The notes under the pieces: generated by a model
Seen by the model: the letters and a program-made list of their open reading frames with translations, nothing else
Databases searched by the model: none
What the model was told of the DNA's origin: nothing
Part shown: piece after piece, positions 1-15,650 of the stretch
How the letters are laid out: each line of letters begins with the position of its first letter
Numbering within the stretch: position 1 is the stretch's first letter
Position numbers and translations under genes: made by a program
Virus record (IMG/VR): IMGVR_UViG_2703718817_000011
From: a virus
Lineage: Duplodnaviria; Heunggongvirae; Uroviricota; Caudoviricetes
Strand: one strand, 5' to 3'
DNA: 15,650 nucleotides

Positions 1-165
1 ATGGCAAAGCCGATCATCACGCTCAATGGCCTAAAAATCGTCATTATGTTGGGAATGCTGGTCATTATTCTCTGCGGTATCCGTTTTGCCGCCGAGATCA
101 TCGTGCCGTTTATTCTCGCATTATTTATTGCTGTTATATATAACTTATCCCGCATAGTGCATTGA
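1..165 (+). pseudogene. tqsA: Truncated 5' fragment of AI-2 exporter gene tqsA (ydgG), interrupted by the inserted element
   Basis: ORF at nt 1 translates [46 protein letters not shown], which matches the TqsA N-terminus from memory; it then diverges (YNLSRIVH) and stops at 163-165 instead of continuing about 340 codons. Confidence 0.55.
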
Positions 166-210
166 TTTAATTAAGCAATTTTCACTGAGAAAGTGCCAAA
201 ATTCGCAAAA

Positions 211-234
211 TGACTACACCAGTGACTACACCGT
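211..234. repeat. Tandem direct repeat, 2 x TGACTACACC on a 12-bp period, about 70 bp inside the left junction
   Basis: tgactacaccag / tgactacaccgt at 211-222 and 223-234, read directly. Confidence 0.5.
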
Positions 235-620
235 TCGGTGCACTGTATGAAACAACGTGGAACAAATAGGCACAAGAAATATAAAGGCGGGTAATTTTAA
301 GGAGGCGTTGCTGTCGATATGGGGATCCCCATAACGGGGCTACCGGATTTTTTTTCCGGTTAACCTTTAATCAGCCAGGTGGGTTTTACATACCCTTGAT
401 CACCGTAATGATGATCCAGATGTGCACCTTTTCCACCAATGGCGGAAAAGCTCCAACCGTAACGATGATCGCTATGGTTGCCTCGATGGTCTGCGTGGTC
501 ATTATGACCATTCAGCCAGTGACCTTAATCAGAATTTTTCGCTAAAAAATGACGTTGGCCACGTCATCCGGAAAGCACAAAATCACGTCGATTTTTAATG
601 AACGGTTAAACCGTCTTTTT

Positions 621-660
621 GTCACGGTGTGTCACTGGTTGTCACTCTCCGTCACGATTG
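621..660. repeat. Four helically phased decamers each beginning GTCAC
   Basis: gtcacggtgt gtcactggtt gtcactctcc gtcacgattg with an exact 10-bp period, read directly. Confidence 0.55.
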
Positions 661-769
661 AGGTGGTGCTCATTCTGCCCGACCGCGCATTTTTGCGCTA
701 TCGGGAATATAAAACAGTTACCGCCGTCAGCTACCCAGCTCAGAATTGAGCCGCCTTTTAATCAACAAG

Positions 770-1051
770 TTACCGCCGTAACCGCTCCGGCTTCTTCCAG
801 TGATACGTGATTTTCTCCTTCTCCCGATACAGTTCAACGCGGCGATTGTAGGCCAGCATTTCCAGAACGCGGATCCGTATGTCGCGCATATCCGCATCAT
901 TAAGCTGGATACCATCACGGCGCATCACCTCAGCAACAACACGCGCATAATTTTCGGCTGTCACGCTGTCCGGCTGCGTGGTCTGTTCGTCAGCCTGCTG
1001 GCTGATTCCAGAGACGCGGCGGATTAATCGCAGTATTTCGGCTTCTGTCAT
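770..1051 (-). CDS. Hypothetical protein (93 aa), last gene of the packaging operon
   Basis: ATG at 1051 preceded by a GAGGT SD; starts 14 nt after the terL stop; no recognisable family. Confidence 0.5.
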   Translation of the reverse strand: MTEAEILRLIRRVSGISQQADEQTTQPDSVTAENYARVVAEVMRRDGIQLNDADMRDIRIRVLEMLAYNRRVELYREKEKITYHWKKPERLRR

Positions 1052-1064
1052 GCTGCTGACCTCA

Positions 1065-2726
1065 TTACACCCCGCTAAATTCTTCCAGTTTCTGGCGGTG
1101 GCTGTCGCTTATATCAAAAGCAAAATCCTCATGCTCTGCCTGGAATGTACCAAACGCCATCAGCGCCGCTACGCTCGGGTCTATCTTGTTCGGTGATTTT
1201 TTCTTGTTCGGCTTGATATTGGCGTTCGCGTCACTCTGCATCACGACGTTACTCATCGACCAGGACAACACCGGATCGCCACGATGCACAATCACCCTGC
1301 GGTTAACAAAAACTTCGAACGATTTCGCCGCCGGACTGAATCTGAGGTAGGTTTGCGGGAACGGCTCCACCTCAAAACCAGCCCCCTGTAATTGCGTCCT
1401 GAGATGCGTGGCGTTCCACGTATCAAAGCCCACCAGCCTGATATTAAATTTCTCCGCATCCTGCATGATGTCATCTCTGATCCGGTCGTAATCAATGCAG
1501 TCACCTGGCGTTGTGCGTATCCAGCCCGCTTTAGCCCACTGGCGATAGACAGCGCGGTTTTTATTGGCGGGGTTCTGTAGCTGGAACTCCGGCAGATAAT
1601 GACGGGAAACCAGCATGATATTTTTACCGACCGGAAAGGCATAGCACACGCTGGAAATATCGCTGGTTGATGATAAGTCCAGCCCCGCGTAACACTCCTG
1701 CCCGTGTAAATCTTCCTCCGTGAACGTTCCGGCACACTCAGCCCATGCGCCGTTACCCATCCACGGGGTAGCCCCCTGGCACCAGATATTAAATCGCTTT
1801 GTCATCATCTCCACCCATTGCGACGGAATACCCCGCGCTTTCTGGATGGTTGAGGCCAGTTTTTCACGATCCACGGAAACATCGATGTTAGGGTTAGCCT
1901 TTATCCACATCGCCGGATCATCAACCTCGTTTTCGTCGTCCAGCTCGTAAATCAGCACAAAAATTGAATCGTTGACCTCTTCGCCGTCCAGGATCTGGCA
2001 GCAATAATCATAGTGCTGTTTACAGGTTGAAACGACGTTACTGCCCGATGTGGTAATGGCAAATAACAGCCCTTCGGGACGTGCGCCCATCCCCAGCTCA
2101 AGCGCGGAATAAACGCCGTTATCGGGGTGTAGGTGGTATTCGTCCACGATGGAAAGGCTGGGGTTTGTTCCCTCGATGGTTGCCGCTTTTGCTGCCAGCG
2201 GCTTTAACAGGCTGTTGCTTTTCGGGTGCATCACCTTGTGGGCCTGAATATTCACCCGCCTGCGTAACGGTCGGGATAAAAGGCACATCTGACGCGCATC
2301 ATCAAAAACGATCCGCGCCTGGTCACGGCTCACCGCTGCGGTGTAAATATCCTGCTGCCCGTTCTCCATAATCAGAAACCAGTTAGCCAGAATCGCGGCG
2401 GTCGTGGATTTCGCATTTTTGCGCGGCACTTCGATAAAGGCGCTCGTGTATTTGCGCCGTCCGGTGGCCTTAACCTTAAAGCCGAGGATGCACGCAAAGG
2501 CGAACTGCTGCCACGGCTCCAGCTCAATGGGTCTGCCACGCATCGGCCCTTTTACGTGCGGGCACACCCTGGAAAAGGCAATAAACCGCTCCACAACCTC
2601 ACGATCGAACGTGTAAAGGGGGCTTTCAAGGTCCGAAAAGTACCGTTTAACGGCCTGTTTCAGCCGTTTACAGGCCGGAATTTTGCCCGTTTTTACGTCT
2701 TCTGCGTACTTATTCCAGGCGGTCAA
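1065..2726 (-). CDS. terL: Terminase large subunit (HK97-type)
   Basis: 553-aa ORF with an N-terminal ATPase Walker A-like segment (VPRKNAKSTTAA) and a C-terminal nuclease-like region; apparent TTG start at 2726 with an AGAGGA SD, overlapping the terS 3' end. Confidence 0.88.
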   Translation of the reverse strand: MTAWNKYAEDVKTGKIPACKRLKQAVKRYFSDLESPLYTFDREVVERFIAFSRVCPHVKGPMRGRPIELEPWQQFAFACILGFKVKATGRRKYTSAFIEVPRKNAKSTTAAILANWFLIMENGQQDIYTAAVSRDQARIVFDDARQMCLLSRPLRRRVNIQAHKVMHPKSNSLLKPLAAKAATIEGTNPSLSIVDEYHLHPDNGVYSALELGMGARPEGLLFAITTSGSNVVSTCKQHYDYCCQILDGEEVNDSIFVLIYELDDENEVDDPAMWIKANPNIDVSVDREKLASTIQKARGIPSQWVEMMTKRFNIWCQGATPWMGNGAWAECAGTFTEEDLHGQECYAGLDLSSTSDISSVCYAFPVGKNIMLVSRHYLPEFQLQNPANKNRAVYRQWAKAGWIRTTPGDCIDYDRIRDDIMQDAEKFNIRLVGFDTWNATHLRTQLQGAGFEVEPFPQTYLRFSPAAKSFEVFVNRRVIVHRGDPVLSWSMSNVVMQSDANANIKPNKKKSPNKIDPSVAALMAFGTFQAEHEDFAFDISDSHRQKLEEFSGV

Positions 2727-3066
2727 GCTCGTCCTCTTCTTCTGTTTCCGGTGGATTTTTACGGCGGCTTATCGGGTCAAAACCGAGCAAAGAGGCCATT
2801 TTTATCATCACTCTTTCAGCGTCGGATTTTGCGCTTAATGCGGGGTTTCTGCTCTCGCCGCCCTGACTGTTAACAATGCTGAACCCGCGCGCCGCAAGGT
2901 CTGCAACGGCTTTCCGGTAAATGGAGTAGTTGACACAATACAGTTCCAGATTGCTCCAGTCGGCGGGGGTCAGGTCTCCCCGTTCCGCAAGCTGCCTAGA
3001 TTTTTCCCGCCACTGCTTCACGGCGATATCATCCAGGTAGGCGGGGGCTTTCGGTGGTCTTGCCAT
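2710..3066 (-). CDS. terS: Terminase small subunit (P27 family-like)
   Basis: 118-aa ORF directly upstream of and overlapping terL; sequence resembles P27-family small terminase subunits (recollection). Confidence 0.75.
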   Translation of the reverse strand: MARPPKAPAYLDDIAVKQWREKSRQLAERGDLTPADWSNLELYCVNYSIYRKAVADLAARGFSIVNSQGGESRNPALSAKSDAERVMIKMASLLGFDPISRRKNPPETEEEDELDRLE

Positions 3067-3188
3067 GCTTATTTTTCGCCAGATTATTTTTCAAAAAATT
3101 CCCGTGCATAAAAATTTGAGGAGGCGTTCGGTGCCCGGCGGGGTCGGGTTGGTCCTGAAAACGCCCCCCACCCCGTCATACAGCCTCA

Positions 3189-3371
3189 TCAGCGATTGCG
3201 GAAACATTCCATAACCTCGCGGTCACGGTCGGTTAATCGCTTCGCTGTGATGCGTTCTGCGCGTCCTGACGCTTTATCTTTATGCCCTGTTTCCTGTGTC
3301 TTCCATGCGTCACGCTGCCTTATAAGTCCACGGATAAGGCGGTTTTGCTCCCGCTCATTCATCAGCGTCAT
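3189..3371 (-). CDS. Hypothetical small basic protein (about 60 aa) between HNH and terS
   Basis: Internal ATG at 3371 (or 3362) of track ORF 3189..3593, overlapping the HNH stop; highly charged sequence; weak SD. Confidence 0.3.
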   Translation of the reverse strand: MTLMNEREQNRLIRGLIRQRDAWKTQETGHKDKASGRAERITAKRLTDRDREVMECFRNR

Positions 3372-3795
3372 ACATCCAGTTATTGCGGTTAGCGGCCCGT
3401 TCTTCCTCTTCACGAAATCCACCTGCGGCACGCTTGCTTTTTGTTGCCGGATCAAGCCATTTCGTTTTCTGGTTATGACACGCCTGGCACAATGGTTGAT
3501 GGTTCCATTCGGGCCAGAAGAGAACATCATCACCGCCATTAATCGGGATAATGTGATCCACCACCACGGCGGGCGTATATATCCCCTTCTCAAGGCATCG
3601 CACGCATAACGGGTTTTTACTCAGATACATGGCGCGGTATTTGTCCCACTGTCTGGAATATCCACGCGCGCGGCGGTGTCCTCGTCTGGCATCCTCTGCA
3701 CGCCATGCCGCCCGCCTGTGCTCCTCACACTTGCCGGATTTAACGCGCCTGTTACAGCCTGGTTCTGTGCATCGTCTTAATGGTTGCCACGGCAT
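3355..3795 (-). CDS. HNH endonuclease (packaging-associated)
   Basis: 146 aa with paired Cys motifs and an HNH core (CxxC ... DHIIP ... N ... H ... CxxCH); located next to terS as in HK97-like cos phages; start overlaps the upstream stop. Confidence 0.85.
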   Translation of the reverse strand: MPWQPLRRCTEPGCNRRVKSGKCEEHRRAAWRAEDARRGHRRARGYSRQWDKYRAMYLSKNPLCVRCLEKGIYTPAVVVDHIIPINGGDDVLFWPEWNHQPLCQACHNQKTKWLDPATKSKRAAGGFREEEERAANRNNWMYDADE

Positions 3796-4091
3796 CAGTA
3801 CACCCCCACATCACGGTAAGCCGTCCAGAGTGCGCCTATCGTCATGGGTACGCGTGTTTTTGCGTTATCCGCGACAATCTGGCGATTTTCATACAGGTGA
3901 GCGATAAACATCATGCAGCCAATCTTTATGGCTGGCGTGAACTCCAGCCCGTCATCAAAGCGCCTGCCTATGTGTATCTGGCACGCCTCAAGCGATGCGG
4001 CAATGTATCCGCTGATTAACTGGTCTTCATCGTCGCCATCGATGCGGCAATGGAGTTTCACTTCTTCCAGGGTGATAAGTTCTTCTGTCAT
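3795..4091 (-). CDS. Head-tail connector protein (gp6-like DNA packaging protein)
   Basis: 98-aa ORF; N-terminal ITLEEVKLHCRIDGDDEDQLI pattern typical of gp6-like connectors (recollection); ATGA overlap with the upstream gene. Confidence 0.65.
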   Translation of the reverse strand: MTEELITLEEVKLHCRIDGDDEDQLISGYIAASLEACQIHIGRRFDDGLEFTPAIKIGCMMFIAHLYENRQIVADNAKTRVPMTIGALWTAYRDVGVY

Positions 4092-4426
4092 TTTTCCGCG
4101 CCCTCACGACAAAGAATTTCAAGGCGTGTCCTGGCGGCATCCGGCAGCGGCTGCCCGATGATATTCAGTACACGCCCCGCCAGCGGCCCCGTACTGACCT
4201 TTATCCGACTGGTGGCGTTGATGTCCTTCCGGTACCGTATCCAGATCCTTACGGTACCAATCGCCAGCTCTGCGCCCGATGAAATGGCCTCCTTGCTGCT
4301 GATCATGTTCACGCTTGCCCAGAGTGTGTGACCGTCCTCCCACGTTTCGAGTATTTCGCCCGTCATGGCTCTGGTCTGTTTCAGGGTCTGAATCGTTATC
4401 CTGTCACGCAGTCGCCCTATGTTCAT
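4088..4426 (-). CDS. Head closure / head-tail joining protein
   Basis: Start taken at the internal ATG 4426, which forms an ATGA overlap with the portal stop; begins MNIGRLRDRITIQ, a hallmark of the phage head-tail joining family. Confidence 0.65.
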   Translation of the reverse strand: MNIGRLRDRITIQTLKQTRAMTGEILETWEDGHTLWASVNMISSKEAISSGAELAIGTVRIWIRYRKDINATSRIKVSTGPLAGRVLNIIGQPLPDAARTRLEILCREGAEK

Positions 4427-5634
4427 TCCGGTTTTTCTCCCTCGCTGATTTTTACTTCCTGTTTCCATGCCTGGCTGAACTCATCACCACCATCACGCGG
4501 TGACAGTCCTTCACGTTCGCGGGCTTCGTTCGGACACATAACGCCGGATTTGATGCCGCGCTCATAGGTGGCAAAGCGTTCGCCAGGTGTGGCCCGTAAC
4601 AGGTCCGCGCTGTCAAACTCCACCTGATACCGGATACCAGGTACAGGCGAGGCCACCAGCAGGGCGTTTTTTATCTGCTGCTCAAAGTTCGCCAGCCACG
4701 GGCGCATCGTCATGGTGAGAAATGCGCGGCTTGCCTCGCTGAAATTGCTGTAGGTGCTGTTGCTGTATTCCTGCAAAAAAATCGGCGAGACGTTGAACAT
4801 TCGGGCGATGTCTTCAATGGTGAAGCGACGGGAGGCCAGCCATTCAGCATCCTGATTACTCATGCCCAGCTGCTGATAGCTCATACCCCCTTCAAGGATG
4901 GGCGTTTTTCCGGCGTTTCTGGCCCCTTTGTAGCGTTCCAGTGCGGCTAATGCCTGTTTGCCCTTCACGCCGTCCAGCCATTCGCCTGACGTGATAACCC
5001 CTGCCGCCATCATGCCATCACGCATCACGCTCGCGCCGTGGCGTTGTTGGGCCAGCCCAAGCCCCAGCGATTCGCGGCAGATGGTTACAGGTGAGCGCCC
5101 CATAAAGCCGTCATCCGTGGAGTAACGAAGGTGAAGTACTTCCCACGGTAAATAGTTGCGGGTGTTTCCGGTGTAGGCGTCAGTGATGCAGTAGCGCCAG
5201 TTGTGTTCGCCTGTCTGCTCCACGTTCACCGACTGCGGCGGGTAAGGATGTAAAGCCGCCGGAAAACCATCACGCCCCCACTGAATCACCGCATAAGCAT
5301 TACCGTTTAACAGGCAGTGGCGGATCATCATTCGCTTAAACTGGTAGGGGGTTTGCCATGCGTTCGGGCGCTCGTTGAGGATGTGATCGACCGGATGAGA
5401 ATCAAGCCACTCGCGGGCCTCCTTCCCCTTCTCATTGCGTACCAGGTACAGGTAACACGGCATGGTAGCCACCGCCTCAGAGATGACCGTGACGGCGTTC
5501 ATGACGGCGGGCAGTGATTCCGCTGTCCCCGATGATACGTACTCACCCGCCCCCGTGTTCGATGTGCCAGCCAGCGCCATAAATTCATCAAGCGTCATGC
5601 TGCGCTGCTCTTTTTTTCTTCTGAAAGGCCACAT
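4423..5634 (-). CDS. Portal protein (HK97 family)
   Basis: 403-aa ORF with portal-family features; GGGGGTG SD upstream of ATG 5634; starts immediately after the protease stop. Confidence 0.88.
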   Translation of the reverse strand: MWPFRRKKEQRSMTLDEFMALAGTSNTGAGEYVSSGTAESLPAVMNAVTVISEAVATMPCYLYLVRNEKGKEAREWLDSHPVDHILNERPNAWQTPYQFKRMMIRHCLLNGNAYAVIQWGRDGFPAALHPYPPQSVNVEQTGEHNWRYCITDAYTGNTRNYLPWEVLHLRYSTDDGFMGRSPVTICRESLGLGLAQQRHGASVMRDGMMAAGVITSGEWLDGVKGKQALAALERYKGARNAGKTPILEGGMSYQQLGMSNQDAEWLASRRFTIEDIARMFNVSPIFLQEYSNSTYSNFSEASRAFLTMTMRPWLANFEQQIKNALLVASPVPGIRYQVEFDSADLLRATPGERFATYERGIKSGVMCPNEAREREGLSPRDGGDEFSQAWKQEVKISEGEKPE

Positions 5635-5635
5635 A

Positions 5636-6208
5636 TCACACCCCCGCTAAATCCACCCACCAGCGGCGATTATCCGCACGCGGCATTTTTTCGGGGTGCT
5701 GCTCATACAGGGAACGGCGGGCCAGCTCCACGCCGGAATCAGGGTAAGCCGGAACGGATGTAACGGTAATTTCGTACAGTTCCGCCACCAGCACGGTGCG
5801 CACGCATGGATCTGTTGTGGTATCCCATACATCCTTACGGGAACGAAAGCCAAAGCTCATGCCGGATATATCACCACGTTTAACCAGTTCGATAACGTCG
5901 CGCCCTGTGCTGGTATCCGGTGGGGTCAGTTCAAAGCGTAACCCTGTTTCGTCCTCTTCCAGTTTCAGCGTGCCGGAACGGGTACGCCCCAGTAACATGC
6001 TGTGGTCATGCTCATACAGGCCGCGAACGTCATTACCCGCTGCAAGCCATTCAGTAAACGCTCCCCGCTGGAATTTTTCGTAAAACTCACCCCATAACAG
6101 TTCTGAAAGCTTATCCCAGCGAACAACGTAGCCCGTCAGCGTACCGGCTCCGCTGGTGGTGATTTCCGATGACCGGATTTCCATACTCTTCATAATTTTT
6201 TCACCCAT
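5636..6208 (-). CDS. Prohead maturation protease (HK97 family, S78)
   Basis: 190 aa with YEHDHSMLLGRT and ISGMSFGF motifs typical of HK97 prohead proteases; alternative starts at 6193 or 6184. Confidence 0.82.
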   Translation of the reverse strand: MGEKIMKSMEIRSSEITTSGAGTLTGYVVRWDKLSELLWGEFYEKFQRGAFTEWLAAGNDVRGLYEHDHSMLLGRTRSGTLKLEEDETGLRFELTPPDTSTGRDVIELVKRGDISGMSFGFRSRKDVWDTTTDPCVRTVLVAELYEITVTSVPAYPDSGVELARRSLYEQHPEKMPRADNRRWWVDLAGV

Positions 6209-6237
6209 AAAACACTAAAGGGGCTTTTAAGCCCCTT
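6204..6237 (-). terminator. Intrinsic terminator-like hairpin after the capsid gene (minus strand)
   Basis: AAGGGGC / GCCCCTT stem at 6218-6237 followed on the minus strand by a U-rich run (UAGUGUUUUAUG). Confidence 0.4.
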
Positions 6238-6247
6238 CTGTATGCTG

Positions 6248-7650: not shown

Positions 7651-7653
7651 TTT

Positions 7654-8386: not shown

Positions 8387-8395
8387 ATTGCCACC

Positions 8396-8701
8396 TCAGT
8401 GAAGCGATCCGGCGTTGTTCTTTTTCATCTCTTCCATCATTTTTTCAGTGAGCATTACGCACTGAAAACCCATGCTTTTGATGTCTACGGGTTTCATGCC
8501 TTTGTCTGTGGATATCACAGGCAGAATATCCTGATACACATCGCGGTCAGGGTAACTAAGCACACAAAGCGCCCATGATGCCACGGGTGAGGATCCTTCG
8601 TCTGTTTCAACCCACCAGCCTGGTGTAGCTGCGCTTATTTGCAGAATCGTGATCCGTCCGTTGTGCTTGTAAAATTTTTCACCAAATTTTGGTTCGCTCA
8701 T
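8396..8701 (-). CDS. Hypothetical protein (101 aa)
   Basis: ORF with an ATGA overlap to the upstream gene; 10-nt gap to ssb; no recognisable family. Confidence 0.5.
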   Translation of the reverse strand: MSEPKFGEKFYKHNGRITILQISAATPGWWVETDEGSSPVASWALCVLSYPDRDVYQDILPVISTDKGMKPVDIKSMGFQCVMLTEKMMEEMKKNNAGSLH

Positions 8702-8949
8702 GATTCCACCTCTCCGGTTTTAACGTTGATTGTTGTTACCTGTTCCGCTTCGGCAATCTCCCGTTCTGTCAGCGTGGCAAAGTTTGCCGCCGCTGTGGTC
8801 ATGAATGCGCTTATCAGTTCGGGATGCTCCTTCGCGTATCCTTCCCCCGCGTGGCGGTCTATCGTTCTGATTGCCACCTTTAAAGCGTGCTCTGTCATGT
8901 CTAACGCTTTATATTTTGGCTGTGTTCTGTCTCTGCGTTTTTGTGTCAT
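8698..8949 (-). CDS. Hypothetical protein (83 aa)
   Basis: Start taken at the internal ATG 8949 (GGTGGGGAG SD); the upstream part of track ORF 8698..9144 overlaps the iteron region and is probably non-coding. Confidence 0.4.
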   Translation of the reverse strand: MTQKRRDRTQPKYKALDMTEHALKVAIRTIDRHAGEGYAKEHPELISAFMTTAAANFATLTEREIAEAEQVTTINVKTGEVES

Positions 8950-8950
8950 C

Positions 8951-9155
8951 TCCCCACCTATACCCACTTTTACTCCCCACTTTTCACAATTCCCCATCTC
9001 GTTAAAGGCGTGGGATTTGTAATTTTTATCATGCTGTTTCATAAGGATTTTTTTGCTCCCCACTTTTTGGGATGTATACAGGTCAAAAAGTGGGGGATTG
9101 TGTTTAAATTTTGTTAAATTCCCCATACCCACCACTTTTGCCACCCACTTTTTAC
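8951..9155. repeat. Putative replication origin: CCCCACTTTT-type iterons flanking an AT-rich segment
   Basis: At least six copies of CCACTTTT in both orientations (about 8965, 8977, 9060, 9084 inverted, 9133, 9146) around an AT-rich stretch at 9011-9056, immediately 3' of the replication gene. Confidence 0.5.
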
Positions 9156-10561
9156 AGTGGCCCTACATCATCGCCGTCAACATAGATAACGCCGTCTTTT
9201 TCCAGCTTGCCCAGCCAGCGCCGGAAGTGCTTTATTTCGTACCCCAGTTTTTTCATGTCATCACGTAACAGCGGGATCGTGCACTTGTCGCCGTTCTGTG
9301 TGCGTGAACGGATACACCCCCATAGCGCGGTATGGTTTTCCGTCTTGTTGCCTGCCTCTTCGATGCGCTCCAGTTCAACGGGAGGGCGCGGCTTATCCAC
9401 CACCACCAGCGACGTGATTAACTCCCCGTCAGCGTCGGTAAAAAGCTCCACCACCCGCAAATCATAGGCAGCCTCTTTGAGTTCCTCCGCGTCCTTCATT
9501 TTGGTGCATGAGATAACCAGCGCTTCGCTTCCTGCGTCCTCCCTGCGTATCCGGTATTCAGCATCCAGTGATGCACGAAATGCACTGGAACCGCGCGCGC
9601 CTTTCGTCTCATCCTTGCCGGAATGGTGAACCACCAGCACCGTGGCCCCTGTGCGTCGTTTCAGTTCGTCACACCCACGGATAAACGCCCCCATGTCGCG
9701 GGAGTCATTTTCATCATTGCCGCCAAAGCAGCGCGCCAGCGTGTCCAGAATAATCATGCGAACAGGTTTACCCGTTTCCCTCTCCACCTGACTGGCAGCA
9801 ATAACCAGTTCATCAACATCAAGCGGGACAGCCGGAAAGATGGGACGGTTTACCAGATACAGATTTTTCACCTGCTCACCGTGCACAACCTCCCAGGCTT
9901 TTACACGACGCGGAACGCCGATACCGCCTTCACCAACCACATAGAGAACAGCGCCATGCGCCACCCTGCGGCCTCCCCACTGGCGGCCCGTGGAAACGTG
10001 ACACGCCCACGATCCGGCAAGGAATGATTTATAGGAACCGCTCGCCCCGTATATGCTGCAAAGCGACGATGCCGGAATAATCCCCTTTACCACGTAATCA
10101 AGTTGTGTGTCGTATCCGGTAGATCCAACGCTCATCGGTAGCGTGGTTTTTCGCTGGGGGATTTTTTTCATGACCAGGCTTTCCCCGCGTTCCCATGCCT
10201 CCCTAAGCCGTGGAAGCTGGTCGCTCCATTCCTCCAGCAATTCGAAATTTTCAGAAAGTAGCCGCGCCTCCTGGACTCCGGCGATCGCCAGTTTCGTGGC
10301 GATGGTTAACAGCTGCGGCTCTTCAATATTTCCGGCGCGTATCACCGTCGCCCTGTATCGCCCATCATCAACAATCTGGAGGTTATCCAGTTCGCTTAAC
10401 TGATAACGCCCCAGATAAACGGGAGGGACTGGATCGCCTGCTTTTTTGGCCTGTGCAATGATGTAATGCTCTGCGAATGAGTGAGCATCAATACCCGCAA
10501 AAATAATCGCATCGGTGTATTTGTCTTTCGGTAATAGTTTTACGTTCGGTGCCAGTTTCAT
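9152..10561 (-). CDS. Replication initiator/helicase-type ATPase (AAA_25/RepA-like), candidate PICI Pri-Rep
   Basis: 469 aa with Walker A GASGSYKS, Walker B-like MIILDTL and an HHSGK motif typical of AAA_25 RecA-like replication proteins; N-terminal domain about 150 aa of unknown type. Confidence 0.7.
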   Translation of the reverse strand: MKLAPNVKLLPKDKYTDAIIFAGIDAHSFAEHYIIAQAKKAGDPVPPVYLGRYQLSELDNLQIVDDGRYRATVIRAGNIEEPQLLTIATKLAIAGVQEARLLSENFELLEEWSDQLPRLREAWERGESLVMKKIPQRKTTLPMSVGSTGYDTQLDYVVKGIIPASSLCSIYGASGSYKSFLAGSWACHVSTGRQWGGRRVAHGAVLYVVGEGGIGVPRRVKAWEVVHGEQVKNLYLVNRPIFPAVPLDVDELVIAASQVERETGKPVRMIILDTLARCFGGNDENDSRDMGAFIRGCDELKRRTGATVLVVHHSGKDETKGARGSSAFRASLDAEYRIRREDAGSEALVISCTKMKDAEELKEAAYDLRVVELFTDADGELITSLVVVDKPRPPVELERIEEAGNKTENHTALWGCIRSRTQNGDKCTIPLLRDDMKKLGYEIKHFRRWLGKLEKDGVIYVDGDDVGPL

Positions 10562-10857
10562 TTTTTACCCCTGAATCCGTTAATCATGGTTTTCAGCTTC
10601 TGGATGTTTGCCCGTGCCCTGACGTTGCTGGTGGGCACGTTATGCGGCGCGGTCTGTACCAGAGAAAAATCACGCCGGAACTGATAAACAGGCATCACGC
10701 AATCATATTCGTAACCTTCACGGCGGTAAGTTACGCACCGTCCCGCCACGCCCTTAATCATTACCGTGCCGCCGTACTGGTCGCGGTAAATATCACCGCG
10801 CGTAAATTTAGGGTGAGTGTTGCCACTGGCAGTTAAGCCAGAATATTTAAGTTTCAT
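10558..10857 (-). CDS. Hypothetical protein (99 aa)
   Basis: ATG 10857 with a GGAGAA SD; ATGA overlap with the rep start. Confidence 0.5.
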   Translation of the reverse strand: MKLKYSGLTASGNTHPKFTRGDIYRDQYGGTVMIKGVAGRCVTYRREGYEYDCVMPVYQFRRDFSLVQTAPHNVPTSNVRARANIQKLKTMINGFRGKK

Positions 10858-10862
10858 TATTT

Positions 10863-11096
10863 TTATTCTCCGGTGTGCTGTTCGTTATATCTGTCGTGCA
10901 ATGTCTCTATTTCCTGCAACTCATTTATTACAGGCTCAAGAAGCGTTATTAATGCCGTGACAATTCTTGATTTTTGTTTGTCGCGTTCATTGTCGCCAAG
11001 TGTTTCAAGCCATATGCGCAATATTTCCAGCATGTTTTCACTGTGAGAAAGTGCAAGAAATACGCGTTCTGTTGTTTCGTGGTAAATATCACGCAT
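10863..11096 (-). CDS. Hypothetical protein (77 aa)
   Basis: ORF overlapping the upstream gene by 8 nt. Confidence 0.45.
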   Translation of the reverse strand: MRDIYHETTERVFLALSHSENMLEILRIWLETLGDNERDKQKSRIVTALITLLEPVINELQEIETLHDRYNEQHTGE

Positions 11097-11322
11097 GGCT
11101 TACATCCTCAGGAAATTTTCTTCTGTAACGCGCCTCTGCCACATATTCCGCATAATCGGCGGCGATATTCAGTACATCAAGTCCCGTTGATTTATATTCT
11201 TTCGTGGAAAGTAAGAAAAAAGCCGCTCTAATAAGTTCTGGCATTGACGAAAGCGCATCAGCCGCATCATCAGATACGCCGGAAAATTCTTGTTTCAGGG
11301 AATAAAAACGATCATCACGCAT
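11089..11322 (-). CDS. Hypothetical protein (77 aa), possibly the C-terminal part of a gene split at a G9 tract
   Basis: ATG 11322 lies 2 nt after a 9-G homopolymer (minus strand); no properly spaced SD. Confidence 0.4.
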   Translation of the reverse strand: MRDDRFYSLKQEFSGVSDDAADALSSMPELIRAAFFLLSTKEYKSTGLDVLNIAADYAEYVAEARYRRKFPEDVSHA

Positions 11323-11555
11323 AACCCCCCCCCATTTTCACAATCAGCAATCAGGATAGCTTTGGCCTCATTCAGCGCCATATCAGCACTAAGTTGCATA
11401 ACCGCCAGCGAATGAGGAACGAAAGCCCCGGCATATTCTGTTTCGCTGGTGGCGTGCTTATGTGCCCTGTCCGCGATAACAGAAATATCAATCAGCGCGT
11501 GCATCAGCGTTTTGATGGCTTCGGCGGCTGCGTCCGGTGTGGTTTTATTGTGCAT
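11295..11555 (-). CDS. Hypothetical protein (86 aa), possibly the N-terminal part of a gene split at a G9 tract
   Basis: ORF ends in a hydrophobic tail (LCVMIVFIP) right after the homopolymer; a +1 G would fuse it in frame to 11089..11322. Confidence 0.4.
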   Translation of the reverse strand: MHNKTTPDAAAEAIKTLMHALIDISVIADRAHKHATSETEYAGAFVPHSLAVMQLSADMALNEAKAILIADCENGGGLCVMIVFIP

Positions 11556-11757
11556 AAAGCATCCCCTGAATATTCGTGTTAATCATTCCGGCACGTTTTG
11601 TGATTTCCTGTAATGATTCCCTTGTGGCGACAATTGCTTCATCTGGTAAGTGGTAATTACACACCACGCGACCTTTATCCACATTGACCAGTAGCTGCCC
11701 TGTGAATTTCTCACGAAACTGAATGCGGTTAAGGTCAGTAAGTGACAGATTAATCAT
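11545..11757 (-). CDS. Hypothetical protein (70 aa)
   Basis: ATG 11757 preceded by a strong AGGAGGTG SD and overlapping the upstream stop. Confidence 0.5.
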   Translation of the reverse strand: MINLSLTDLNRIQFREKFTGQLLVNVDKGRVVCNYHLPDEAIVATRESLQEITKRAGMINTNIQGMLYAQ

Positions 11758-12307
11758 GGCGCACCTCCTGACGAATACGGGCGGCAAATACAGCAACACA
11801 ACCGGACGGGCAACGGTTACGCGCTTCGCGTTCCGTCCAGGCGGTTACGTGGATGATTTGATGGTCTGACGCGCCAAAGGCAATAAAGCGCCAGATAAAG
11901 GCTGTTTGAGAATGTACGAGGGCAGGGGTAGTAGCCATGTTGGCAGCCTCCTCAGTGTGGTTAAGATAACCGCCACGCAAAAGGCTAATTTCGCTGGTGG
12001 CGGACTGTACAGGGTTAGCCTTACCGGACACTGAAGAAACCGGCGCGGATTGCTCCGCCCCCGTACAGCCCACCATTGATAAGGTGTGACTATGCGGCAC
12101 AAAAAAACACGCGGGACGCGTGCTGTGCGCTTCAGTTGTTTTCAGGAGGCTAATCCCGACACCCGTTTTATGAGGTGCGCGGGAATCATAGCTATTTTCG
12201 ACACTGGCGATCAACTGGTTTTTTTCTCCGATATTCAGGGCCAGAAAACGCCACACAAAGGCAGTTTGTGTGTGTACAAGGTGTGGTATATGATTTACAG
12301 CAACCAT
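11750..12307 (-). CDS. Icd-like (P4 host cell division inhibitor-like) protein with tandem duplicated domain and internal start
   Basis: ATG 12307 with an AGGAG SD; two copies of an LVH(T/S)QTAF(V/I)WRF segment; second in-frame ATG at 11938 has its own GAGGAGG SD; Icd-like call from recollection of P4-like island proteins. Confidence 0.5.
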   Translation of the reverse strand: MVAVNHIPHLVHTQTAFVWRFLALNIGEKNQLIASVENSYDSRAPHKTGVGISLLKTTEAHSTRPACFFVPHSHTLSMVGCTGAEQSAPVSSVSGKANPVQSATSEISLLRGGYLNHTEEAANMATTPALVHSQTAFIWRFIAFGASDHQIIHVTAWTEREARNRCPSGCVAVFAARIRQEVRHD

Positions 12308-12398
12308 AACGGCTCCTAGTTTACGTTGTTGGTTAGAAGCCCTGCGAGTGGTAACGACACTTGCGGGGCTTTGTCTTTTCATCGATTACCTTGATAAA

Positions 12399-12487
12399 GG
12401 TGTCAGCCACTATATTAGTAACGGGTGTCAGCCACGTCAATAGTGTTTTTCCGTTTTCTTGTGTGTATACTGTCAGCCACCTAATAA
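12399..12487. promoter_or_regulatory. Divergent promoter/operator region with three direct repeats of GGTGTCAGCCAC
   Basis: Repeats at 12399-12410, 12424-12435 and 12470-12480; minus-strand TTGACG-17nt-TAATAT (12435-12440 and 12412-12417) with a repeat in the spacer; plus-strand TATACT (12466-12471) or TTGTGT-17nt-TAATAA. Confidence 0.45.
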
Positions 12488-12501
12488 CGAGGAAATCAGA
12501 T

Positions 12502-12681
12502 ATGGCAACAAAAGCAGTTAATGCAAAATCCAAAAAGCTTGAGGCTCGAGTACCACACGCAATAGCTGATGCTGTAGAAAATTTAAAGGAAGATGGCGAA
12601 AGTACAGGGCAATTTATCGTTTCGGCACTTGAAGGCGAGATCAAACGCCGCCAGCGCCGCAAGGCCAAAGAATCAGAATAA
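12502..12681 (+). CDS. Ribbon-helix-helix (CopG/Arc-like) DNA-binding protein, 59 aa
   Basis: ATG 12502 with a GGAA SD; predicted beta-strand/helix/helix layout (KLEARVPHAIADAVENLKEDGESTGQFIVSALEGEIKRR); divergent from the replication operon. Confidence 0.55.
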   Translation: MATKAVNAKSKKLEARVPHAIADAVENLKEDGESTGQFIVSALEGEIKRRQRRKAKESE

Positions 12682-12738
12682 TCACTATCAGCGCCGTGGT
12701 GTGAGGTACTACGGCGCATTGCTTTACAGGGCAGTATC

Positions 12739-12966
12739 ATGACCAACAACACACTATCACCAATACAAGACACGCAAACGCAAGATGATGAATTCATCCG
12801 GCAAAGGCAGTCAGAAGCCTGCGCCAGACTTGAGGAAGAACTAACCAGAACAAAAATACCACCACCAGCGCCGCGCTTAGTGCCACCAGAAAAATTTGCC
12901 CTTGAAGATTTTGTCGATAAATACCCACGGCGGCTTAAATCCGGCAAAAACCGACCGCCAGGATGA
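12739..12966 (+). CDS. Small protein of unknown function (75 aa), partner of the upstream RHH gene
   Basis: ATG 12739 follows the conserved 44-nt hairpin element; paralogous to 13423..13626. Confidence 0.45.
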   Translation: MTNNTLSPIQDTQTQDDEFIRQRQSEACARLEEELTRTKIPPPAPRLVPPEKFALEDFVDKYPRRLKSGKNRPPG

Positions 12967-13084
12967 GTGCACAAAACCGAACTATGAAACGGATTATTCC
13001 GTTTCCGGGGCGTTTGTGTGTGTATAAAGAGTAAGCTATGCTCTTTTATAGCCATAATCGTTCCTCAATTAATGGTTTGGTTAG

Positions 13085-13128
13085 ACGCCCCGTATGTGTT
13101 CCCATCACTGCGGGGCGTTGTTTTTTGT
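13085..13128 (+). terminator. Intrinsic terminator after the first RHH module
   Basis: 8-bp GC-rich stem ACGCCCCG / CGGGGCGT followed by TGTTTTTTG. Confidence 0.5.
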
Positions 13129-13185
13129 GCTAGTTGTGTGTAATGTGTATATACACATAAACACATTATATGGGGTGTAATTGAC

Positions 13186-13365
13186 GTGTCAACACACAAA
13201 AATGAAAGGCGTGGTAATCCTCCTTTCCAGTTCCGTTTAGATCCTGACTTACGGGAAAAGATGGAAAAAGCACAACAACAAGACGGTGATGACTCTTTAG
13301 CTGCTTGGATAAAACGAATAATCCGAAAAGAATTACAGCAACGCGGTATTGAACCCAAAGAATAA
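13186..13365 (+). CDS. Arc-like ribbon-helix-helix protein, about 59 aa (start uncertain, GTG proposed)
   Basis: Not in the ORF track (below 60 aa with a non-ATG start); hand translation gives VSTHKNERRGNPPFQFRLDPDLREKMEKAQQQDGDDSLAAWIKRIIRKELQQRGIEPKE, resembling P22 Arc; GGGGTG SD-like 8 nt upstream. Confidence 0.5.
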   Translation: MSTHKNERRGNPPFQFRLDPDLREKMEKAQQQDGDDSLAAWIKRIIRKELQQRGIEPKE

Positions 13366-13422
13366 AAAACATCAGCGCCGTGGCGTGAGGAACTCCGGCG
13401 CATTGCTTTACAGGTACACACA

Positions 13423-13626
13423 ATGACCAATAAAGAATCAACCAATACACCATCGCAAAAAACGAACAGAGAGCACGAAAATATGGCGCTCGAGCATGAA
13501 TCAGAAAGATTCGCTCCATGCGCTTTTGTCCTTGATGAGTTTCTAAAAAAATATTCACGTTCTGAACGGATGAAAATGGCAGCACAATACGGCCCCAACA
13601 AGCAAGGTAATTGCCCACCAGCCTGA
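13423..13626 (+). CDS. Small protein of unknown function (67 aa), paralogue of 12739..12966
   Basis: ATG 13423 follows the second copy of the 44-nt element; both proteins start MTN and share a C-terminal F(A/V)L(E/D)(D/E)F..KY.R motif. Confidence 0.45.
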   Translation: MTNKESTNTPSQKTNREHENMALEHESERFAPCAFVLDEFLKKYSRSERMKMAAQYGPNKQGNCPPA

Positions 13627-13699
13627 TAGCGGCTATCATTCCCGTGCTTATGTTTGGGATCACATACACATAAGGCGCAGCAGGTTAATTGTTCAGAAA

Positions 13700-13728
13700 G
13701 GCGGCTCCATATCGGGGCCGCTTTTTTT
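13700..13728 (+). terminator. Intrinsic terminator after the second RHH module
   Basis: GCGGC / GCCGC stem followed by seven T. Confidence 0.5.
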
Positions 13729-13869
13729 ATGCCTGAAAAACCCCAATTTTGTTGTTTTTCAGTTTCACCAGGGCGAACGAATCCCCGCCCACGTTCGGGC
13801 GCATATTCAATCTTCATAGTTATATCTCTGTATTAGTGGATGTGTGGCGACTGTGTGCCGCCAGTCTTT

Positions 13870-14058
13870 TTAGTGAACTGCCTTGCAGCTATCCTTCCAG
13901 GCCAAAACCTCAGATAAAGACCAGCCAACAGAACGCCCACCAAGTTTACGACGTGATGGGAATTGTCCGGCCTTTTCCAGGCGGTAGCGGCATGAGCGGC
14001 TAAGGCCTGTTAGCTTTTCGCATTCTTTTTCACGTATAAACCGATCAGTGCTTAACAC
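13870..14058 (-). CDS. alpA: AlpA-family phage regulatory protein (excisionase/transcriptional regulator-like)
   Basis: 62 aa, apparent GTG start with an AAGGGGG SD; winged-helix excisionase-like sequence (LTGLSRSCRYRLEKAGQFP ... GWSLSEVLAW); downstream of and co-directional with int. Confidence 0.78.
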   Translation of the reverse strand: MLSTDRFIREKECEKLTGLSRSCRYRLEKAGQFPSRRKLGGRSVGWSLSEVLAWKDSCKAVH

Positions 14059-14219
14059 TATTGCCCCCTTTCGTTTCTTAAAGAGTTATTTCGTGTTCTA
14101 TTGCGTTGGGATGTGTCTGATTGTGTCAGGATGATTCAGAGTTGGCAAATGTTGGTGTCGCATGGTTTACAGAAAGAGGAATAATCAGGATAAAATCATT
14201 TAAATTCATGTTAATACAA

Positions 14220-14249
14220 AGGCATAAAATCTTGTTTTATGCCTTTTTT
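14220..14249 (+). terminator. Strong stem-loop plus T-tract in the int-alpA intergenic region
   Basis: 10-bp stem AGGCATAAAA / TTTTATGCCT, 5-nt loop, then TTTTT; could act bidirectionally to end int transcription. Confidence 0.45.
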
Positions 14250-14340
14250 CGCACACTTTAACGCGTAATTCACTAATGTATAAAAAACCAGCTGAGCATT
14301 AAAAATCAGCAACTTACAAATCTGTATTCTTTTTGGCCTC

Positions 14341-14390
14341 TTGTTCGTGATTGTGTCACGTTGTTGCACATTGTTTCTCGTTGTATCTGT
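14341..14390. repeat. Five helically phased decamers each beginning TTGT
   Basis: ttgttcgtga ttgtgtcacg ttgttgcaca ttgtttctcg ttgtatctgt with an exact 10-bp period, between int and alpA. Confidence 0.55.
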
Positions 14391-14432
14391 GCACTTATCC
14401 AGTATGCGCATACTGAAAAAACACGAAAAAAA

Positions 14433-15650
14433 TTATTTTATTCTGGTTACTGGTAGCGTGGTTACGTTTTCATGTGTTCCCGCCAGTATCTCCAACCGCT
14501 CCACCCACATATCAAGCGCATTGCGTTTCGCATCAATATAGCGGGAATGGTTGTACACGCGTTGCATTCCTGGCATCTGGTGGCCTGTAAGCTGCTCCAC
14601 GACGTGAGGATCAACGCCTAAATCGTTCAGCATGGTTGTAAAGGTGCGCCGGATGTCATGCAATGACCATTGAGGGTGTTTTAGCCTCCTGTGCGCTAAT
14701 CTGCCGTACTGCGATACGCTAGCCTCCTGTTTCACTTCCCCCAGTAATAAGCCCGTGTGCCTGTTCTGGTCCACCAGCCGCGTGACGAACGGCAGGATCG
14801 CTTCCGGTATGGGCCGGAATATTGCAACCTTCGTTTTGCTGTGCTCCTTCGGAACGGTCCATAGCATTTCGGTAAAATCCCACTCGCTGATCTCCGATAA
14901 CCTCAGTTCTACCGTCCTGGCTCCGAAGACAATCAGGAGGCGGATTAACGCGACGTAGTAAGGAGAAAATATTTTTTTATCCAGCGCCTGCAATAACTCG
15001 CCCAGTTCTTTGGTGCTTAAGACACGTTCGCTTATATCCGGTTTTTTCCCAACGTCCGCCACGTTCAGATCATCGAGAACGTTGCTGATTGCAAAGCGCC
15101 GCCTCCGGCAGAACTTAAGCGCCTGCTTGCATGTCTGTAGCACGAATCCGGCAGTAACAGGTGTTCGCTTTGCCACCTGGTCAAAACAGGCCAGCCAGTG
15201 CCGTAGCTCGCATTTATCCAGCGGCATAGCGCCAATGTACTGTATTACGTGATTATTAAGTCGCCTTTTCAGGGCGATATAATCCACGCGGTTTTCCTTT
15301 ACGTACGACTCAAGCCAGTAGGTGAGCGCATCGCCAACCGTTACCGGCTTTAACGCTTCCTGTACGGCGTAATTCATCTCATGGCGTGGATTTTTCCCCT
15401 CCGCCAGCCATGCGCGACACTGGGCGGCTTTTTCCCTGGCTGCTTTCAGGCTCAGATCAGGATAATTTCCCAGCTTAATACGTTCCGGTCGTGTCTCTCT
15501 TCCCGTTCCTGCCCTGTAAGTGAAATACCAGGTTAATTTCCCTGATGTTAAATATTTCACGCTCAGATTTCCGCCATCGCTATAAAACGTGTTTTTCTCC
15601 GCTGGCTTACCATGAAGTTTCCTTAGCAAGGTATCGCTCAGTTTGTTCAT
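14433..15650 (-). CDS. int: Tyrosine-type site-specific integrase (phage/P4-like family)
   Basis: 405-aa ORF whose start codon is the last three bases of the window; C-terminal catalytic signature HDIRRT ... H ... Y and an N-terminal arm-binding-like domain. Confidence 0.9.
   Translation of the reverse strand: MNKLSDTLLRKLHGKPAEKNTFYSDGGNLSVKYLTSGKLTWYFTYRAGTGRETRPERIKLGNYPDLSLKAAREKAAQCRAWLAEGKNPRHEMNYAVQEALKPVTVGDALTYWLESYVKENRVDYIALKRRLNNHVIQYIGAMPLDKCELRHWLACFDQVAKRTPVTAGFVLQTCKQALKFCRRRRFAISNVLDDLNVADVGKKPDISERVLSTKELGELLQALDKKIFSPYYVALIRLLIVFGARTVELRLSEISEWDFTEMLWTVPKEHSKTKVAIFRPIPEAILPFVTRLVDQNRHTGLLLGEVKQEASVSQYGRLAHRRLKHPQWSLHDIRRTFTTMLNDLGVDPHVVEQLTGHQMPGMQRVYNHSRYIDAKRNALDMWVERLEILAGTHENVTTLPVTRIK

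Follow-up and report, generated by a model that had tools for sequence, protein, structure and literature searches.

The capsid-forming PICIs (cf-PICIs) were described as a family in 2022-2023, and a detection tool is available for them. Their prototype, EcCIEDL933 of E. coli O157:H7 (Alqurainy et al., bioRxiv 10.1101/2022.09.08.507074), is 15.4-15.5 kb in size with a 47.5-nm T=4 capsid, and a cryo-EM structure has been obtained for it. Induction through alpA, small capsids made by the island and dependence on phage tails are known only for EcCIEDL933, KpCIDSM30104, and EcCIGN02175. The window analysed here is the whole 15,650-nt stretch of IMG/VR record IMGVR_UViG_2703718817_000011. With a probability of about 0.93, it is read from its sequence as an integrated cf-PICI of the EcCIEDL933 lineage, ~15.7 kb long and near-identical to the prototype, from which a helper-dependent life cycle is carried over by analogy.

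Integration site, boundaries, and distribution

The features of the window are listed in Table 1. The match to K-12 tqsA places the host/element junction at 137/138, correcting the position of 139 given in an earlier note on this DNA. In E. coli RM10042 (serogroup O43, NZ_CP028122), tqsA resumes at nt 129 past the element, and the 9-bp att core, nt 129-137, is therefore duplicated. Because the window ends at the int start codon (the RefSeq start in relatives is 12 nt past the window end), attR and the far flank are known only from this near-identical relative, where attR lies ~187 bp past the position of the window end. Adding these ~187 bp to the 15,513 bp in the window gives ~15.7 kb, a size that agrees with the ~15 kb of a T=4 head. 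The element inactivates tqsA, and with it a gene of AI-2 export, in the host.

The RM10042 element occupies the same site and has a 100% identical integrase and 99.7-100% identical DNA (100% over window positions 1-724 and 99.8% over 12224-15650); it differs in lacking the 302-bp RNA cassette and in having ~143 extra bp near attL. The element in JNE120442 (NZ_AP027254) has the same backbone at 96.1% over window positions 160-15647, a stretch in which the RepA helicase, the plus-strand genes, and the C4/isrK cassette are all shared; it differs in its roxA site, its integrase type, and its AAAGTGAG iterons. Integrases at the roxA site are 90% identical to the one described here, and elements at that site carry TTAACTACACC in place of the (A/G)TGACTACACC arm repeats (2 matches in the window versus 0.14 expected). 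The same backbone is found at two att sites, and integrase, core, and arm repeats change together. Of 5426 complete E. coli genomes, 413 contain the packaging module (at least 80% covered) and 61 the whole element. The coverage of the element by any one INPHARED phage is 13% at most.

Table 1 Features of the window, by position
Position	Strand	Feature	Evidence or remark
1-137	+	5' fragment of host tqsA (AI-2 exporter), disrupted by the element	identical to K-12 tqsA nt 1-137; same fragment is a RefSeq pseudogene in RM10042
129-137	.	att core TGCTGTTAT, attL copy (attR copy outside the window)	tqsA nt 129-137
210-232	+	tandem (A/G)TGACTACACC repeats, candidate integrase arm-type sites	23-mer also present in RM10042, between int and attR
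252-275	-	three phased TTGT-N6 boxes in attL arm, candidate AlpA/RDF sites	
770-1051	-	orf93, conserved, downstream of terL	phrog_1561, E 1.5e-55; 93.5% identical to O157:H7 counterpart; homologues also in classical PICI hosts, e.g. CFT073
1065-2726	-	large terminase TerL	Pfam TerL_ATPase and TerL_nuclease; phrog_9; 98.2% identical to O157:H7 cf-PICI
2710-3066	-	small terminase TerS, P27 family	Pfam Terminase_4, E 1.3e-23; 100% identical to O157:H7 cf-PICI
3067-3188	-	intergenic region, candidate cos site	HNH-type layout (cos upstream of terS)
3189-3371	-	orf60, conserved protein	phrog_3173, E 7.5e-37; 100% identical to O157:H7 counterpart
3355-3795	-	HNH endonuclease of packaging machinery	Pfam HNH; phrog_144; 99.3% identical to O157:H7 element
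3795-4091	-	gp6-like head-tail adaptor	Pfam Phage_connect_1; phrog_40 adaptor Ad1; 99.0% identical to O157:H7 element
4088-4426	-	head closure / head completion protein	Pfam Phage_HCP; phrog_25 Hc1; 99.1% identical to O157:H7 element
4423-5634	-	portal protein	Pfam Phage_portal, E 2.5e-90; 99.3% identical to O157:H7 element
5636-6208	-	prohead serine protease (S78)	Pfam Peptidase_S78, E 7e-48; phrog_80
6248-7405	-	HK97-fold major capsid protein, N-terminal delta (scaffold) region ~100 aa	Pfam Phage_capsid, residues 115-394 of 400-aa ORF
7623-7646	-	phased TTGT-N6 boxes upstream of capsid operon	after terminator-like hairpin at 7687-7670
7693-7965	-	PerC-family transcriptional activator	Pfam PerC, E 6.8e-44
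7976-8386	-	single-strand DNA-binding protein (SSB)	Pfam SSB, E 6.6e-16
8396-8949	-	two conserved genes (8396-8701, 8698-8949)	phrog_27268, phrog_1231; same ORFs called by RefSeq in RM10042
8963-9151	-	candidate replication origin: AT-rich stretches surrounded by six AAAGTGGK iterons, one of them inverted	directly 3' of helicase gene
9152-10561	-	RepA-family helicase (replication initiator)	Pfam AAA_25, E 2.9e-43; phrog_2850 full length, helicase/primase PHROGs
10558-11757	-	DUF4222 gene and four small overlapping genes without known function	
11750-11938	-	icd-like gene, SD GAGGAGG	NCBIfam phage_ICD_like
11993-12080	-	C4-type antisense RNA	Rfam RF01695, 75.4 bits (gathering score 45)
12102-12178	-	isrK-type RNA ending in hairpin and U-run terminator	Rfam RF01394, 61.6 bits (gathering score 50); terminator also seen separately
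12401-12480	-	divergent control region: three GTGGCTGACA repeats around sigma-70-like promoter (12440-12412)	
12502-13626	+	variable region downstream of alpA, with a gene pair (YlcI/YnfO-like RHH protein and small protein) in two diverged copies	NCBIfam YlcI_YnfO_N; phrog_949, Arc-like phrog_228
13870-14058	-	AlpA regulator	Pfam Phage_AlpA, E 5e-18; 98.4% identical to O157:H7 cf-PICI AlpA
14341-14384	+	five phased TTGT-N6 boxes, int-alpA intergenic region	
14433-15650	-	tyrosine integrase, P4 type	Pfam Arm-DNA-bind_3 and Phage_integrase

Head and packaging module

The earlier note had read the window as a tail-less satellite that forms its own capsid, and the gene content bears this out. All the genes it listed were recovered intact by Pfam and PHROGs searches, encoded by the minus strand in the order given; a PICI-type left module (tyrosine integrase, AlpA, RepA-type replicase) is joined to genes for the element's own head and packaging enzymes (HNH, TerS, TerL). 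From 7405 down to 1065, the gene order is that published for proteobacterial cf-PICIs (capsid-protease-portal-connectors, hnh-terS-terL), and the dense overlapping arrangement is likewise real, with neighbouring genes sharing 1-17 nt (TerS/TerL, HNH/adaptor, adaptor/closure, and closure/portal). The capsid protein matches PDB 9GYI, the EcCIEDL933 cf-PICI capsid according to its authors (bioRxiv 10.1101/2025.02.11.637232), at 384 of 385 residues. The element has all 11 core components of the SatelliteFinder cfPICI model and none of the forbidden ones, namely tail and holin/lysis genes. No scanned ORF on either strand of the window had a Pfam or PHROG match to a tail or lysis family, which upholds the reported lack of such genes, and the unassigned gaps (632, 374, 287, 243, 219, 202, 194, 122, and 39 bp) are too small for undetected ones, the largest being 632 bp. 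Nor do tail or lysis genes follow int in RM10042, where attR and the tqsA 3' part come within ~190 bp, followed by pntB and pntA. An intact temperate tailed prophage was rejected on this gene content and on the att-bounded size of 15.7 kb versus ~35-60 kb for HK97-like phages.

A cos site is probably located in 3067-3188, as suggested by the linear record of vB_KppS-Ant (16.5 kb), which begins at this region directly after the conserved GGGGTGGGGG..GTTTTCAGGAC block; the opening of this one GenBank record may be an assembly convention.

Compared with the O157:H7 86-24 element, the ten proteins of the packaging module (nine head/packaging genes and orf93) show 93.5-100% identity and their ORFs have the same lengths, so the head genes are not inactivated remnants; capsid, protease, portal, adaptor, and closure are full length and 97-99.5% identical. 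Codon differences from this relative comprise 141 synonymous and 29 non-synonymous changes, and no core gene contains a frameshift or premature stop. By these measures, the operon for HK97-type head formation and cos-type packaging is complete and selectively maintained. The element could still be a cf-PICI by descent that is non-functional or immobile in its host through a regulatory defect, the want of a compatible helper, or an RNA cassette locking the early operon. Nothing in the sequence shows activity, the absence of the 302-bp cassette from the closest relative, RM10042, indicates an unstable region, and the prototype itself was induced by none of the 17 resident EDL933 prophages. We nevertheless consider this reading improbable, given the intact core genes, the purifying selection, and the occurrence of the cassette-bearing form at the roxA site as well and in 143 genomes, which indicates that it spreads.

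A decayed HK97-like prophage, from which tail and lysis modules were deleted and whose head module serves no mobile unit, would account for head and terminase proteins of ordinary phage families and for the distant capsid homologues in ~40-kb phages. In bona fide 40-kb phages, however, capsid identity is 40% at most, and the best capsid matches in the phage collection (at least 57%) are to cf-PICI-sized records of 15-16.5 kb, a 3.8-kb fragment record, and one odd 106-kb record. Judged by sequence identities, capsid and TerL appear to belong to the cf-PICI clade, apart from phages. Decay is very hard to reconcile with precise att boundaries between host genes, full-length ORFs with mainly synonymous differences from a relative at another locus, a 15-16 kb architecture recurring in hundreds of genomes at two att sites, the low DNA coverage by any phage genome, and an int-alpA-rep half that is PICI-type rather than lambdoid. 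The element has int, alpA, the icd-like gene, the C4-type RNA, and orf93 in common with classical Gram-negative PICIs and P4-like elements, but a satellite of that kind, remodelling helper capsids, has practically no chance of being the correct class here, given the element's own capsid, protease, portal, adaptor, head closure, HNH, TerS, and TerL, the presence of portal, adaptor, and connector genes that the SatelliteFinder PICI model forbids, and the lack of Sid/Psu/delta or Cpm/Rpp homologues among the hits.

Replication and regulatory regions

At the level of sequence, the origin claimed for the element in the earlier note is real. The window contains six AAAGTGGK motifs, all of them within 8963-9151, versus 1.08 expected in the whole window, and none of 200 shuffles reached six. 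Iterons next to the rep gene match the layout described for Gram-negative PICI origins (PMC6092414), and several rep alleles are known in the cf-PICI family. In JNE120442, whose helicase differs mainly in the C-terminal 69 residues, the iterons read AAAGTGAG (6/6); iteron sequence thus co-varies with the helicase C-terminus. On the evidence of the iterons, a RepA-type helicase without a primase domain may act as a PICI replicon.

The 302-bp C4/isrK cassette, bordered by 58-bp repeats, has been gained or lost between elements that are otherwise 99.7-100% identical. The loop of the C4-type RNA pairs with the SD of the icd-like gene at -15 kcal/mol, an energy reached by none of 500 shuffles; the upstream (seqA-like) pairing was no better than chance. 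The three exact copies of GTGGCTGACA have weak statistics, as 8 of 200 shuffles reached three. The variable region contains a 75-nt repeat with a spacing of 684 nt, and a PADLOC defence search of it returned no match above noise. Phased TTGT-N6 triplets occur at just three places in the window (0.003 expected) and in the attR arm of RM10042, and the same four places are kept in the O157:H7 element. Besides the two att arms, these boxes are found ahead of alpA and of the capsid operon.

Between alpA and the replication genes lie plus-strand genes in convergent orientation and an RNA cassette that contains a terminator, and regulation may therefore differ from that of EcCIEDL933. We suggest only tentatively, considering it on balance doubtful, that the cassette may be a portable RNA immunity switch on the early/replication operon, masking the RBS of the icd-like gene and terminating transcription early, and that the TTGT boxes may form an AlpA regulon that links excision with the activation of late genes. 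Should both ideas hold, induction would depend on two inputs, AlpA and release of the RNA block, and the range of inducing phages could change.

Proposed life cycle and comparison with known systems

The placement of this copy beside the best-studied member of the family allows function to be transferred with good confidence. From the prototype experiments, a helper phage would switch on alpA, and AlpA would activate the island, leading to excision and replication from its own origin. Capsid protein, protease, and portal would build small T=4 heads, HNH, TerS, and TerL would cut and package unit-length island DNA at cos, and adaptor and head closure would finish the tail-less heads. These would be infectious only after joining siphovirus tails from a co-resident or external phage, and cell lysis would be left to a phage. 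Published mutational and EM work on EcCIEDL933 found every one of these genes to be required for transfer, with only tails supplied by the helper. As adaptor and closure are 99% identical to those of EcCIEDL933, HK106-type tails are predicted. Specific to this member, the C4-type antisense RNA probably masks the RBS of the icd-like gene heading the early operon, which would add a layer of repression absent from the prototype.

In P1/P7 immI (c4-icd-ant) and P4 CI RNA immunity, a C4-family RNA likewise lies immediately upstream of an icd-like gene with its loop complementary to the RBS, and Gram-negative PICIs are reported to contain relatives of P4 CI and seqA that the Rfam C4 and isrK models pick up (PMC10111431). 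Unlike in P1/P7 immI, no ant gene follows here; satellite early and replication genes lie downstream instead, and the RNA function is putative. Classical Gram-negative PICIs (EcCICFT073, EcCIED1a; Fillol-Salom et al. 2018, PMC6092414) share the integrase, the AlpA-dependent activation logic, the iteron origin after the rep gene, PerC-type genes, and unidirectional transcription, but use helper capsids and lack the portal, adaptor, closure protein, TerL, and full capsid gene set.

With EcCIEDL933, the element shares the gene order int-alpA-early genes-rep-ssb-perC-capsid-protease-portal-closure-adaptor-hnh-terS-terL-orf93 and the phased TTGT boxes at four places. Compared with the O157:H7 86-24 copy, packaging DNA is 97.3% identical, and AlpA, SSB, and PerC are 98%, 96%, and 94% identical. 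The two elements are similar in size (~15.7 kb versus 15.4-15.5 kb). The one described here is integrated at the tqsA core TGCTGTTAT and EcCIEDL933 at the phoQ/roxA intergenic core AATATGTCC; their integrases are 90% identical, and their arm repeats differ. Its initiator is a 469-aa RepA-type helicase with AAAGTGGG iterons, whereas EcCIEDL933 has a 710-aa DUF927 protein (primase) with TAACCCGCA iterons. The 302-bp C4/isrK cassette is absent from EcCIEDL933, the gene content downstream of alpA differs, and in the O157:H7 copy the interval from perC to the capsid gene is ~330 bp longer, with one additional small gene and a pseudogene fragment in it. The differences in site, replicon, and RNA cassette are module swaps of kinds already reported for the family. 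The element provides natural comparison pairs for integrase retargeting (90% identical integrases at tqsA versus roxA), Rep-iteron specificity (GTGGG versus GTGAG iterons with changes in the helicase C-terminus), and the role of the C4/isrK cassette (with versus without it). The result confirms that a reader can recognise a cf-PICI from raw sequence; the element itself has little significance beyond annotation. Judged by the comparisons made here, it is an ordinary member of its family and, as a mosaic, closely related to EcCIEDL933, which had already been characterised.

Gene content and packaging module

Genes were assigned from Pfam, PHROGs and NCBIfam using the ORFs of both strands (table below, listed as transcribed). 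Every substantial gene of the window lies on the minus strand, the unassigned gaps are at most 632 bp, and no ORF on either strand matched a tail or lysis family, so that both the gene list and the absence of tail and lysis genes set out in the earlier note were borne out by the three databases. A tRNA search of the window found none. Minus-strand ORFs 12333-13055 (240 aa) and 13065-13817 (250 aa) overlap RefSeq-annotated plus-strand genes and have no family match, and were therefore taken as spurious. ORF 14211-14411 gave no matches and is not AlpA. A search for a defence system among the genes of no assigned function using PADLOC gave only a match to Cas8g of 17.6 bits, at noise level.

Genes and gene groups assigned in the window
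Feature	Position	Strand
Integrase	14433-15650	-
AlpA	13870-14058	-
Variable region, four small genes	12502-13626	+
Early operon: icd-like, four small genes of no assigned function, DUF4222 gene	10558-11938	-
RepA-family helicase	9152-10561	-
Two genes of no assigned function	8396-8949	-
SSB	7976-8386	-
PerC-family activator	7693-7965	-
Major capsid protein	6248-7405	-
S78 prohead protease	5636-6208	-
Portal	4423-5634	-
Head closure	4088-4426	-
gp6-like adaptor	3795-4091	-
HNH	3355-3795	-
60-aa gene of no assigned function	3189-3371	-
TerS	2710-3066	-
TerL	1065-2726	-
orf93, conserved	770-1051	-

By the published definition, a capsid-forming phage-inducible chromosomal island (cf-PICI) combines a PICI-type int/alpA/rep half with its own capsid, protease, portal, adaptor, connector, HNH, TerS and TerL genes, capsid first and terminase last, and lacks tail and holin genes. 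All of these sequence-level features were found in the element. Together with a capsid protein identical at 384 of 385 residues to PDB 9GYI chain B, the T=4 capsid of cf-PICI EcCIEDL933 according to the depositing paper (bioRxiv 10.1101/2025.02.11.637232), they support the cf-PICI reading that the earlier note had proposed.

The prototype EcCIEDL933 was represented by the 9GYI sequence and by the counterpart element of E. coli O157:H7 strain 86-24, which sits between phoQ and roxA. Relative to 86-24, the packaging module shows 97.3% DNA identity, and the encoded proteins match in length and share 93.5-100% identity. The codon changes comprise 141 synonymous and 29 non-synonymous, a pattern that indicates maintained function, not decay. 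Of 5426 complete E. coli genomes, 413 contained the module and 61 the whole element at a coverage of at least 80%. Coverage of the element by any phage genome in INPHARED was at most 13%. In the protein search, matches of at least 57% identity came from cf-PICI-sized records (15-16.5 kb), a record of a 3.8-kb fragment or a single odd, large record, and real 40-kb phages reached at most 40%, a split in line with published work that separates the cf-PICI and phage clades. The 54 matching IMG/VR loci, mostly prophage calls from isolate genomes, were set aside as uninformative for the question.

The last gene past terL, orf93 (phrog_1561), has matches at 79-95% DNA identity in some 1300 E. coli genomes, CFT073 among them. 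Since its carriers far outnumber those of the capsid module, it appears to be common to classical PICIs and cf-PICIs. It may be the prototype's 'gene 1792', whose loss lowered transfer.

Integration site and replicon

The window matches the start of K-12 tqsA (nt 1-137) exactly over positions 1-137 and diverges from there on, which places the junction two bases before the position 139 named in the earlier note. The near-identical element of E. coli O43 RM10042 (NZ_CP028122), also in tqsA, matches the window at 100% (1-724), 99.7% (685-11921) and 99.8% (12224-15650) DNA identity. In RM10042, about 187 bp beyond the window end, tqsA continues from its nt 129, so that the 9-bp core TGCTGTTAT is duplicated on both sides of the element, and the genes that follow are the ordinary host genes pntB and pntA. 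The window end cuts the element at the integrase start. The 632-bp left end of the element gave no gene matches. At the 40-bp overlap of the alignment blocks in this non-coding end (685-724), RM10042 carries about 143 additional bp (8725-8867 of its locus), probably a local duplication.

The insertion cuts off tqsA, which encodes the AI-2 exporter, after nt 137, and the gene is not restored by the element (window 1-165). The tqsA::element junction was found in 246 of the 5426 complete genomes; tqsA is thus a common insertion site, and a sizeable minority of strains have it split by an element of similar type. A literature search returned no publication linking tqsA, integrase and PICI.

The integrase shares 100% identity with its RM10042 counterpart and only about 90% with roxA-site integrases, with the substitutions clustered in the arm-binding and core-binding parts. 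The att core (TGCTGTTAT at tqsA, AATATGTCC at the roxA site) and the arm repeats (GTGACTACACC in tqsA elements, TTAACTACACC in roxA-site elements) differ along with it. The backbone is shared: the element of JNE120442 (NZ_AP027254), at the roxA site, is 96.1% identical over window 160-15647. Near-identical elements thus occur either in tqsA or between phoQ and roxA, a natural integrase retargeting visible at 129-232 and 14433-15650 of the window and at the ends of the JNE120442 locus.

The replication initiator is a RepA-type helicase, whereas the prototype-type O157:H7 element has a DUF927 protein. All six AAAGTGGK motifs of the window (AAAGTGGG x6) lie within 190 bp directly 3' of the helicase gene (8963-9151), around AT-rich stretches; a matching layout has been described for the origins of Gram-negative PICIs (PMC6092414). 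In JNE120442, all six iterons instead read AAAGTGAG (12811-13030 of its locus), and 8 of the 11 helicase substitutions relative to the window are within the C-terminal 69 residues. Adjoining its own initiator, the O157:H7 element carries iterons of unrelated sequence, TAACCCGCA (20221-20590 of its locus). Because iterons and initiator co-vary across the three elements, the proposal that the element has its own origin gains support.

RNA cassette and other cis elements

Two minus-strand RNAs were identified with Rfam, a C4 antisense RNA at 11993-12080 and, ending in a terminator, an isrK-type RNA at 12102-12178. Both lie within a 302-bp segment (11922-12223) that splits the icd-like gene and is bracketed by 58-bp repeats (11864-11921 and 12224-12281). 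This cassette is carried by 143 genomes; it is present in JNE120442 and absent from the O157:H7 element and from RM10042, which is otherwise 99.7-100% identical. Pairing of the C4 loop with the icd-like Shine-Dalgarno was calculated at -15 kcal/mol, which none of 500 shuffles reached, and the arrangement resembles P1 immI. A P4-style seqA target upstream of the C4-like RNA is unsupported since its -8.8 kcal/mol was matched by 160 of 500 shuffles, leaving only the downstream Shine-Dalgarno site. C4/isrK-type RNAs in Gram-negative PICIs have been noted before (PMC10111431). On the minus strand (11908-12190), the two RNA genes are covered exactly by a Pfam Phage_ASH match, spanning residues 40-133 of a 185-aa ORF, and by 'ash family protein' calls in RefSeq. 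Part of this protein family may consist of translated conserved RNA genes, or a real ORF may contain the RNAs, which has been reported for P4 cI.

TTGT triplets at 10-bp spacing were found only in the attL arm (252-275), upstream of the capsid operon (7623-7646), between int and alpA (14341-14384) and in the RM10042 attR arm (23542-23575 of its locus), with 3-5 TTGT-N6 copies per site and an expected number of triplets of 0.003. The O157:H7 element has them at all four equivalent places. They are good candidates for AlpA sites, which would link excision and late transcription.

In the variable region downstream of alpA (12401-13730), a plus-strand gene pair is present in two diverged copies; each encodes a YlcI/YnfO-like RHH protein and a small protein, has a conserved hairpin between its genes and is convergent with alpA. 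The minus strand carries a perfect sigma-70 consensus, TTGACA-16-TATAAT, at 13192-13165. Three exact GTGGCTGACA repeats surround the early promoter (12401-12480) and are only suggestive as operators, since 8 of 200 shuffles reach three at one mismatch.

Packaging functions and comparison with known cf-PICIs

The cos site is predicted by analogy within 3067-3188, near GTTTTCAGGAC. The 16.5-kb linear record of vB_KppS-Ant, in which a cf-PICI-like element is circularly permuted, opens at the equivalent position after a conserved block. Two GenBank 'phage' records are of cf-PICI size, vB_KppS-Ant (LR881103.1, 16.5 kb) and Pasteurella phage Pmp8 (OR544139.1, 15.3 kb). The former has cf-PICI-like gene content (int, primase, capsid to terL) without a real tail module, and its 766-aa gene annotated as 'tape measure' stands past terL, in an accessory-gene position.

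In EcCIEDL933, the packaging genes were mutated one by one and each was required, and only tail genes were needed from helper HK106. Later work showed that cf-PICIs release tail-less heads and that adaptor and connector determine the fitting tails. By analogy with the prototype, the element would be induced by a helper, form small capsids and hijack tails. As its adaptor and closure proteins share 99% identity with those of the O157:H7 prototype copy, HK106-type tails are predicted.

The element adds a new, uncharacterised member to a well-described family, for which there are already genetic studies of the prototype, a structure by cryo-EM, a tool for detection and a catalogue of about 970 elements. 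The Rep-iteron co-variation, the integrase retargeting, the RNA cassette and the TTGT boxes count as modest leads rather than surprises, and the differences from the prototype are module exchanges of a kind known for the cf-PICI family.
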